From an uncultured bacterium (GTDB taxonomy: Bacteria; Patescibacteriota; Minisyncoccia; UBA6257; GWB1-50-10), in contig CAIKKG010000027.1 of the NCBI GenBank assembly GCA_903827975.1, forward strand, positions 5,403-69,402: a stretch of 64,000 nt of DNA, given 5' to 3'. The stretch's first letter is position 1; every line of letters begins with the position of its first letter. Both the position numbers and the translations under genes were made by a program. Below the pieces are notes generated by a model. That model was not told the DNA's origin. It ran no database searches and saw only the letters and a program-made list of their open reading frames with translations. This document shows positions 18,687-18,981 of the stretch, in pieces.

Positions 18687-18981
18687 GCCGCGGTAGCTCA
18701 GCGGTAGAGCGCAGCCCTAAACTCTTTGGGGCGCGACTCGGTAACGAGTCGATGAAAATCGGGTGAACTCGGGGAAAACTTTCTTAATGGAAAAAAGAAA
18801 ACAATCCCGAACCAAGCTCTGTAGGGCATAAAGGTTACAGAGAAGGCGTAGAGACTAGCGGGTGAGTCCCAACAATAATCCTGCAAATAGCGCCCGACAT
18901 CCTAAATATTAGGATGATGAGATAGTCCAAATTCAGCCTTGGAAGAGGCTGGCGTCGGGGGTTCAACTCCCTCCCGCGGCA
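18687..18981 (+). tRNA. tRNA (anticodon inferred GAA, Phe) interrupted by a group I intron in the anticodon loop
   Basis: 5' exon GCCGCGG-TA-GCTC-AGCGGTA-GAGC-G-CAGCC-CT ends at 18718. 3' exon GAAGA-GGCTG-GCGTC-GGGGG-TTCAACT-CCCTC-CCGCGGC-A runs 18942-18981. Confidence 0.6.
18719..18941 (+). ncRNA. group I intron (about 223 nt)
   Basis: P7 strands: R-like GTAGAGACTAGC at 18848-18859 and S-like GAGATAGTCC at 18919-18928. P1 pairs the exon end CAGCCCU with intronic GGGGCG(C)G, with a U-G at the splice site. Terminal G at 18941. Hairpin GACTCG-GTAA-CGAGTC. Confidence 0.55.

Follow-up and report, generated by a model that had tools for sequence, protein, structure and literature searches.

Four classical settings of group I introns within the tRNA genes of bacteria (Leu.3Ug, Arg.5Ug, fMet.2Ug, and Ile2.5Ug) were extended to 21 by Williams in 2020 (bioRxiv 10.1101/2020.01.27.920355), and one seed of that alignment, Mba55.Phe.2Ug, lies in tRNA-Phe after the second nucleotide of the loop, with U at position −1 and a terminal G (omega-G). 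The 205-nt IC3 intron in tRNA-Ile(CAU) of Azoarcus sp. BH72, for which crystal and cryo-electron microscopy structures are available, is inserted between nucleotides 36 and 37. In the precursors of this intron and that of Anabaena, the anticodon stem built from the two exons remains paired and lends support to a very short P1, the exon part of which comprises 3 bp in Azoarcus (PMC3895272). The cyanobacterial tRNA-fMet(CAU) introns (fMet.2Ug) sit between nucleotides 33 and 34 and follow the same U-1/omega-G rule as the Phe.2Ug seed. Here we describe an interrupted tRNA-Phe gene on the plus strand of a 64,000-nt stretch of contig CAIKKG010000027.1 (hereafter the window, in whose positions all coordinates are given). 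Its setting, tRNA-Phe at loop position 2 with U-1 and omega-G, was already catalogued in 2020, and the window intron is a further member of a widespread class. We consider it very probable that this is a functional tRNA-Phe(GAA) gene on a Candidatus Jorgensenbacteria chromosome, split between U33 and G34 by a 223-nt Phe.2Ug group I intron without an open reading frame (ORF). Its parts are as follows.

18687..18718, plus strand: 5' exon of tRNA-Phe, with the acceptor 5' strand, the D arm, CAGCC (nt 27-31), C32, and U33.
18719..18941, plus strand: group I intron of 223 nt, with omega-G at G18941, located by Rfam RF00028 and by ARAGORN in intron mode.
18942..18981, plus strand: 3' exon of tRNA-Phe, with the anticodon G34 A35 A36, G37, A38, the 3' strand of the anticodon stem, the variable loop, the T arm, the acceptor 3' strand, and the discriminator A73.

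The original prediction, made from the letters alone, held that two tRNA halves form a complete cloverleaf once 18719-18941 is removed, and on reading the sequence we found both halves and every element it had listed in place: GCCGCGG / UA / GCUC-AGCGGUA-GAGC / G / CAGCC / CU in the 5' half and GAAGA / GGCUG / GCGUC / GGGGG-UUCAACU-CCCUC / CCGCGGC / A in the 3' half. Both searches that it had proposed were positive. ARAGORN with introns allowed, used for the intron-aware tRNA search, arrived at the same exons, intron length, and anticodon, reporting a tRNA-Phe(gaa) at 18687-18981 with a mature length of 73 nt and a 223-nt intron between gccct and gaaga. The Rfam family Intron_gpI (RF00028) matched 18709-18951 on the plus strand over the entire model (positions 1-253) at 70.3 bits against a gathering threshold of 50 (E = 8e-16). 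With the intron removed, the gene has the cloverleaf, the anticodon GAA, and the discriminator A73 of a bacterial tRNA-Phe. Neither ARAGORN in its default mode nor the Rfam tRNA model detected the interrupted gene in the window; both of these routine approaches picked up five other tRNAs, and ARAGORN found no second tRNA-Phe in the 64 kb. The five others (Leu-CAG, Gly-UCC, Arg-UCU, Pro-UGG, and His-GUG) lie between 6013 and 21297 on both strands, at most 16 kb from tRNA-Phe, and no introns were found in them by ARAGORN or Rfam.

To describe the intron, we worked out its secondary structure by eye, transferred it to a MAFFT alignment of 24 homologous tRNA-Phe introns, and counted the pairs; the pairing figures below refer to this set unless another is named. 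The elements of the structure are listed here.

18714..18732, plus strand: P1 hairpin, in which exon GCCCU and intron AA(A) (18714-18721) pair with the guide UUUGGGGC (18725-18732).
18722..18727, plus strand: guide part of P10, CUCUUU, pairing with the first six nucleotides of the 3' exon, GAAGAG (18942-18947).
18734..18751, plus strand: P2, 7 bp with a GUAA (GNRA) tetraloop; 7 of 7 pairs compensatory.
18759..18765, plus strand: P3 5' strand, UCGGGUG, pairing with CGCCCGA at 18891-18897; 100% paired, two compensatory pairs.
18769..18810, plus strand: P4 (18769-18774/18805-18810) and P5 (18780-18785/18795-18800).
18812..18846, plus strand: P6 (CC/GG) and P6a (CUCUGUA/UACAGAG); P6a with 7 of 7 pairs compensatory and 98% paired.
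18851..18857, plus strand: P7 5' strand, G-A-GACUA with a bulged A, within GUAGAGACUA; its partner is UAGUCC at 18923-18928.
18858..18884, plus strand: extra hairpin at the P7.1 position, 27 nt, GCGGG/CCUGC closing the loop UGAGUCCCAACAAUAAU; 5 of 5 pairs compensatory.
18891..18897, plus strand: P3 3' strand, CGCCCGA, partner of 18759-18765.
18898..18916, plus strand: P8 hairpin, CAUCCUA/UAGGAUG; 6 of 7 pairs compensatory, with an imperfect MAFFT register at the tip.
18917..18928, plus strand: J8/7 (AUGAGA) and P7 3' strand (UAGUCC), invariant save for one G/U column.
18929..18941, plus strand: intron tail of 13 nt, with CAGCC at 18934-18938, then UU, then omega-G at 18941.

Over the whole structure, 92.6% of the cells were paired, as compared with 76.2 ± 0.6% after shuffling and 37-50% when partners were slid by one to three columns, and 48 of the 81 proposed base pairs had changed on both sides. 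The individual helices were 75-100% paired, and the core contains the P3-P8 and P4-P6 stacks with the P7/P3 pseudoknot. Every pair showed compensatory change in P2, P5 (6 of 6), P6a, and the P7.1-position hairpin; P4 was nearly invariant and, like the invariant P7, 100% paired; and L2 was a GNRA loop in all 24 sequences. An unconstrained minimum-free-energy fold of the 295-nt precursor (z = −4.55) contained the acceptor and D stems together with P1, P2, P3, P4, P5, P6, P6a, and P8. The group I hallmarks named in the original prediction are present as GTAGAGACTAGC at 18848-18859 and GAGATAGTCC at 18919-18928, and P7, by analogy with described introns, would hold the guanosine-binding site. Its subgroup features are mixed. 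Subgroup IC3, to which the four classical bacterial tRNA introns are assigned, is marked by a layout of the Azoarcus/Anabaena type, with P2, a P9 ending in a loop, P9.0, and nothing helical between P7 and P3'; the P3-P8/P4-P6 core sequence of the window intron is IC3-like, yet a covariation-supported hairpin stands between P7 and P3' and P9 is absent, only 13 nt lying between P7 and the 3' splice site. As judged from its RF00028 score, core helices, P1 U.G wobble, omega-G, and P10, the element is a group I intron. A protein-spliced intron was considered and rejected. The bulge-helix-bulge introns of archaeal and eukaryotic tRNA genes are short, canonically sit between nucleotides 37 and 38, are flanked by the bulge-helix-bulge motif, and lack a ribozyme core; the position at 33|34, the bacterial host, and the full group I core rule out this kind of intron here.

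The exact splice junction, and with it the anticodon, had been offered in the original prediction as an inference, and the alignment now gives it independent footing. When 56 splice variants were run through ARAGORN, joining 18718 to 18942 gave tRNA-Phe(GAA) with a 7-nt anticodon loop, and it is at this junction that a U at −1 with a U.G wobble, a G closing the intron, a P10 of 6 bp, and a loop of 7 nt come together. The wobble pair at the 5' splice site is formed by U18718 (U33 of the tRNA) and G18728 and is kept in 24 of 24 homologues. The G with which the intron ends, as had been predicted, and the GAA that follows it are both invariant among these introns. P1 was 95% paired with three compensatory pairs, and the pairs beside the U.G switch between C-G and G-C (12 and 11 sequences) and between C-G and A-U (18 and 6). 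The predicted guide, GGGGCG, held up in giving a U-G pair at the 5' splice site, but its extent did not: the guide is UUUGGGGC (18725-18732), and G18733 faces A18713 and is unpaired. Directly 5' of the wobble G in the guide lies CUCUUU, whose 6-bp P10 was 95.7% paired. Where tRNA position 37 is G (17 sequences), the P10 pair formed with it is C-G; where it is A (6 sequences), the pair is U-A. This double change sets the register at the 3' splice site and therefore the mature loop as C32 U33 G34 A35 A36 G37 A38, with anticodon GAA. With the intron removed from the homologous precursors, the anticodon stem was 98% paired with compensatory change in 5 of 5 pairs, the acceptor and D stems were 100% paired, and the T stem was 99% paired. 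A junction elsewhere, which would produce another anticodon or loop (e.g., AAG, AAA, or an 8-nt loop), is extremely unlikely: ARAGORN formally accepts several alternatives and in some homologues placed the intron 1-2 nt away, but the invariant U.G and the co-varying P10 fit 18718|18942, which unites all four features above, and the tRNA body matches tRNA-Phe calls in all relatives. On the evidence of the aligned sequences, the junction is fixed at U33|G34 by the invariant U.G in P1, the invariant omega-G, and the co-varying P10 of 5-6 bp, and the ligated product expected after splicing would read ...AGCCCU|GAAGAGGCU....

In comparison with the described introns, the window intron is most readily placed beside Mba55.Phe.2Ug, with which it shares 172 identical positions in 250 aligned columns (69%), the 17-nt insert loop included. 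The two agree in host tRNA, insertion at U33|G34, U-1, omega-G, the core motifs GUAGAGACUA, AGCGCCC, and AUGAGAUAGUCC, and the extra hairpin with loop UGAGUCCCAACAAUAAU; they differ in P8, which is shorter in the window intron (19 versus ∼36 nt), and in the sequences of P5 and P6a. The Mba55 tail, AAGUUUGCCUUG, is drawn in the preprint as a 3-bp P9; that alignment goes no further than omega-G, so any helix between tail and 3' exon fell outside its consideration. The Azoarcus intron is likewise compact, ORF-less, and located in a bacterial anticodon loop, and it shares the GNRA L2, the U.G wobble, and omega-G as well as almost identical J3/4-P4, J6/7-P7, and P7 3' strand (AUAGUCC) sequences. 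Measured against its strands in the Williams alignment, GUAGAGACUA is identical, AUGAGAUAGUCC shares only the 3' AUAGUCC, and AAUCCCGA-ACC-AAG of the window differs from AACGCCGA-GCC-AAG of Azoarcus at three positions; overall identity is ∼50%. The size comparison drawn between these two introns in the original prediction is a fair one, with relatives spanning 205 to ∼265 nt. Unlike the Azoarcus intron, the window intron is inserted at 33|34, its P1 consumes stem nucleotides 29-31, it lacks P9/L9 and P9.0, and it has a hairpin at the P7.1 position. The cyanobacterial fMet.2Ug introns, for their part, differ in host tRNA, in their IC3-type core without an insert at the P7.1 position, and in a full P9 region. 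Some cyanobacterial fMet introns carry a homing endonuclease according to work cited in PMC3984707; the window intron has no ORF. The homing endonuclease by which mobile group I introns are recognized is not evident in these 223 nt: no ORF of at least 50 aa was found on the intron's own strand, and the two ORFs of at least 50 aa that overlap it (62 and 60 aa) both lie on the minus strand.

Because P1 takes up exon nucleotides 29-31, the anticodon stem must give up its three lower pairs in the precursor. The last 8 nt of the intron, CAGCCUUG, repeat the end of exon 1, CAGCCCU, and the CAGCC of the tail (18934-18938) is complementary to GGCUG in the 3' exon (18947-18951). This hairpin is formed in the minimum-free-energy fold, and the resulting mimic of the anticodon stem-loop has omega-G as an additional loop nucleotide. 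Scans of genomes and metagenomes yielded at least 118 Phe.2Ug genes, among which 59 distinct tails were short (at most 14 nt, without P9) and 33 were long, with a GNRA-capped P9. In the short tails, the 5-mer that stops 2 nt short of omega-G tracks the anticodon stem of the tRNA to which it belongs, as in the following combinations of tail and 3' strand: AUGC/GCAU, UUACC/GGUAG, UAUCC/GGAUG, and AUGCU/GGCAU. A sliding-window test of tail pairing had a high background (4.08 versus 3.33), and a fixed-register test was used instead. In that register, short tails formed a mean of 3.64 of 5 pairs, as compared with 2.51 ± 0.13 when matched with the 3' strand of another lineage, and none of 5000 permutations reached the observed value (Wilcoxon p = 0.0045 across 20 stem classes); introns with long tails showed no effect (2.12 versus 1.76). 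Among 46 distinct short-tail 25-mers, 66.5% of positions were paired versus 50.7 ± 2.3% after shuffling and 32-50% after sliding, with a covariation score of 0.425 versus 0.206; the true anticodon stem was 97.8% paired in the same comparison. Tail position x2 is not part of P1 and co-varies with nucleotide 42 (A-U in 18, U-A in 8), which favors the 3' exon over the guide as the partner of the tail. The pairing signal is real, if moderate.

From these comparisons, we propose, tentatively and with slightly more doubt than confidence, that in short-tailed Phe.2Ug introns P9 has been replaced by a helix of the last nucleotides of the intron with the 3' exon. P1 would borrow nucleotides 29-31, and the intron would supply its own copy of the strand (CAGCC, UU, omega-G) to hold the orphaned 3' strand (nt 39-43) in an anticodon stem-loop mimic; the mimic would set out the 3' splice site for P10 formation and the joining of the exons, after which an isoenergetic strand exchange would return the strand. 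If this is true, the tail helix is an exon-dependent element not drawn in the published alignment of the class, and the solution is opposite to that of Azoarcus and Anabaena, whose real anticodon stem persists during splicing. We found no published description of tail-exon pairing for Phe.2Ug introns, which is weak evidence, as the subscription literature of the 1990s lay mostly outside our search.

Two flanking elements bear on how the gene may be expressed.

18635..18664, plus strand: sigma-70-like promoter, TTGACT-18 nt-TATACT, matching the consensus at 10 of 12 positions, ∼22 nt upstream of the tRNA 5' end.
18986..19008, plus strand: terminator-like hairpin read by eye, AAAAACCCC-GUAA-GGGGUUUUUU, directly after the tRNA.

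The first of these is a putative promoter by its consensus match. The second was not listed by the terminator scanner because its U-run falls within the extended stem. CCA is not encoded, since the gene is followed by CAA, and would be added post-transcriptionally. The precursor would be transcribed from the sigma-70-like promoter, and the guide UUUGGGGC would then pair with exon nucleotides 29-33 (GCCCU) to form P1 with U33 in the U.G wobble, an arrangement that the covariation shows. The P3-P8 and P4-P6 core, likewise shown by covariation, would fold with the P7 pseudoknot and be held by tertiary contacts from the L2 GNRA loop and perhaps from the loop of the P7.1-position hairpin. As in the rest of the family, an exogenous guanosine bound in P7 would attack after U33. 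GAAGAG and CUCUUU would form P10, again as covariation shows, omega-G18941 would move into the G site, and the 3'-OH of U33 would attack after omega-G, ligating ...CU-GAAGA... and restoring the loop CUGAAGA. For as long as P1 retains the stem's 5' strand, the tail CAGCC would probably pair with the freed GGCUG, a helix that would take the place of the anticodon stem as well as of the absent P9 until strands are exchanged and the mature stem is restored; this last part of the mechanism has partial support in the tail comparisons. The two transesterifications and the docking of L2 with its receptor are modeled on characterized introns, and self-splicing is predicted from the sequence.

Several considerations weigh against this account. 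Catalysis is argued from homology and conservation for an intron known from sequence alone. There is no P9 with its L9 tetraloop, which contributes a tertiary clamp in introns of the Azoarcus type, so autonomous folding may be weaker or protein-assisted. The tail helix, 66.5% paired in its fixed register, is missing in approximately one-third of short-tail relatives, and 51 of the 56 pair-preserving tail differences are C to U opposite G; because a C-rich strand with a transition bias would give the same C-to-U pattern, pairing with the 3' exon and copying of exon 1 are not separated. Finally, the view of the genome extends over the 64-kb window and 8-kb pieces of related contigs, and splicing would be essential only if no second, intron-less tRNA-Phe lies beyond them. 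The loss of P9/L9 raises the question of whether the intron is genuine but not self-sufficient, needing a host protein or RNA chaperone. The tail of 13 nt leaves no P9 hairpin, and long-tail relatives retain a GNRA-capped one, but introns without P9 are frequent and varied (59 distinct short tails versus 33 long), they keep all core helices and the conserved P2/L2 GNRA, and the tail-exon helix may compensate; moreover, genomes of the candidate phyla radiation (CPR) are gene-poor, and no candidate maturase lies nearby. We thus regard such dependence as unlikely and retain the reading of a self-splicing intron.

The host belongs to Patescibacteria/CPR, its chromosome having a G+C content of ∼40%; the neighbors of the interrupted gene include a metal ABC transporter ATPase, a ClpB-like AAA ATPase, and RNase Y, and they are named "Candidatus Jorgensenbacteria bacterium" in NCBI. 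Exact look-up of the adjacent ABC ATPase retrieved seven related contigs (L001-L007), all of which carry the interrupted tRNA (7 of 7), with an identity over its 295 nt of 100% in five and 96.6% in two; for the intron by itself, the identities are 100% and 96%. Between the window and L006, a P2 pair has changed on both sides from G-C to A-U, and the helix at the P7.1 position has changed yet is still paired. These data also bear on the idea that the gene is a decaying pseudogene whose intron no longer splices and whose work is done by an intron-less tRNA-Phe elsewhere. The stretches in view, 64 kb here and 8 kb in each related contig, leave room for such a copy, but purifying selection acts on the exons and core helices, which show compensatory changes over phylum-level distances, the gene is 100% conserved among five strains with differing flanks, no other tRNA-Phe lies within the window, and the same arrangement recurs at 24 of the 120 species-representative loci listed (at least 120 in total). 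A pseudogene is therefore very unlikely, and we continue with the interpretation of a functional gene.

That recurrence came from a pattern scan over one genome per species, which returned at least 120 loci. Among the 120 listed, the host was tRNA-Phe(GAA) in 24 and Asn(GUU), Gln, or others in the remainder, and the listed Phe loci were mostly from Patescibacteria (Saccharibacteria, Yanofsky-, Sungii-, Taylor-, and Harrisonbacteria, and Parcubacteria). The sister introns, in tRNA-Asn(GUU), Gln(CUG/UUG), Thr, Lys, Asp, Tyr, and others, are ORF-less and 200-330 nt long and share AGAGACUA-N25-55-AGCGYCC-N12-42-AUGAKAUAGUCC and the conserved insert loop with the window intron, from which they differ in host tRNA and loop position and hence in guide sequence. 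Seeds for Asn.4Ug, Lys.2Ug, and Leu.1Ug are found in the Williams alignment (bioRxiv 10.1101/2020.01.27.920355), and the insert loop motif is common to the Mba55.Phe.2Ug, Asn.4Ug, and Lys.2Ug seeds. Among the matches listed, introns with the P7.1 insert were about as frequent in tRNA-Asn(GUU) and Gln(CUG/UUG) as in tRNA-Phe; further hosts among them were Thr, Asp, Lys, Met, Arg, Tyr, His, Pro, Ile, and Ser, and the phyla listed for sister introns ranged from Acidobacteriota and Nitrospirota through Cyanobacteriota and Pseudomonadota. The loop UGAGUCCCAACAAUAAU (18863-18879) is near-identical across Phe, Asn, and Lys introns of different phyla, and its closing stem co-varies. This pattern suggests that the loop may engage in a specific tertiary contact.

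The core pattern AGAGACTA...AGCGYCC...ATGAKATAGTCC also occurs in at least 120 IMG/VR viral contigs. Among the viral matches listed, 118 of 124 lie outside any tRNA gene, and the four viral contigs that we checked gave Intron_gpI scores of 64-91 bits. One of the viral contigs (L288) has three introns within 2 kb beside a block of ∼20 tRNA genes. Phage introns sit in protein-coding genes (PMC3984707), and the locations of the viral matches fit.

Position 37 of bacterial tRNA-Phe is usually A. The tRNA-Phe(GAA) studied here has G37 (18945, loop CUGAAGA), as does every Patescibacteria copy collected, all of these being intron-bearing, with the exception of two A37 copies (L076 and L099) labelled Saccharibacteria and Parcubacteria; the A37 copies otherwise come mostly from metagenome-assembled genomes not labelled Patescibacteria, such as Bdellovibrionales and Gammaproteobacteria. 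This distribution hints at a modification of the m1G37 rather than the i6A type in CPR.

The region downstream of the gene is variable. A 33-nt perfect direct repeat at 18964-18996 and 19143-19175, with 146 nt between its copies, consists of the last 18 nt of tRNA-Phe and CAATAAAAACCCCGT, and strains in which the tRNA and intron are identical diverge right downstream. In L002 and L005, the equivalents of window positions 19102 and 19161 are separated by a 1.3-kb insert that carries two bPH_2-domain genes. L001, L003, L004, and L007 have an unrelated flank beginning 3 nt past the tRNA, with an AAA_23/SMC_N-like protein, and DUF3160 is also found in the flank of L001, L003, and L004. The tRNA 3' end looks like an att-type scar and an integration hot spot; no integrase was seen. 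An inverted partial copy of the T arm and acceptor 3' strand, degenerate in the window (GGGAGTTGAACGCCGG), occupies 19046-19060, and in flanks of the L001 type the inverted copy is exact over 16 nt (CGGGAGGGAGTTGAAC) and in L001 lies ∼65-80 nt past the end of the tRNA. A 97-aa ORF (19198-19491) is flanked by terminator-like hairpins AAAAACCCCGTCGATTGACGGGG at 19162-19191 and 19565-19594, which are 97% identical and, the hairpin being palindromic, read as both a direct and an inverted repeat; the one at 19162-19191 was scored as terminator-like by the scanner.

A second copy of the tRNA 3' end 179 nt downstream and a flank that varies between strains are what one might see if the locus were some other structured RNA, whether a tmRNA or a tRNA-like element belonging to an integrated island. 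Against this, ARAGORN found no tmRNA, the best Rfam tmRNA match (beta_tmRNA) reached 11 bits against a gathering threshold of 84, neither a tag-peptide reading frame nor a pseudoknot-rich tmRNA body is present, and removing exactly the intron defined by Rfam restores the full cloverleaf. We consider this alternative scarcely conceivable; the original prediction, which had already set a tmRNA aside, was right to do so, and the interrupted tRNA-Phe gene stands. A permissive Rfam scan of 18400-19800 for other noncoding RNAs returned, besides the intron, only sub-threshold matches driven by terminators. A phage origin of the window, with its six tRNA genes, was likewise rejected: blastn of 18600-19250 against 50,697 phage records gave nothing, and the neighbors are chromosomal.

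Bacterial tRNA group I introns have been known since the early 1990s and tRNA-Phe was added to their hosts in 2020, so the overall picture is unchanged, and the feature described here, though genuine, is an ordinary member of a class already on record. The tRNAs of CPR bacteria often carry group I introns and are hence hard to detect (PMC8172020). Because default tRNA finders miss the present gene, Jorgensenbacteria and many other CPR genomes would wrongly seem to lack tRNA-Phe unless they are searched with introns allowed. What may be undescribed is the absence of P9 together with a tail that copies the 5' strand of the anticodon stem and can pair with the 3' exon. The class supplies a natural and very compact group I intron in which P1 competes with the anticodon stem and the tail may serve as the stand-in strand, and it offers a tractable system for the effects of exon context on the selection of the 3' splice site. 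If this is the sole tRNA-Phe gene, translation in the lineage would depend on a 223-nt ribozyme.

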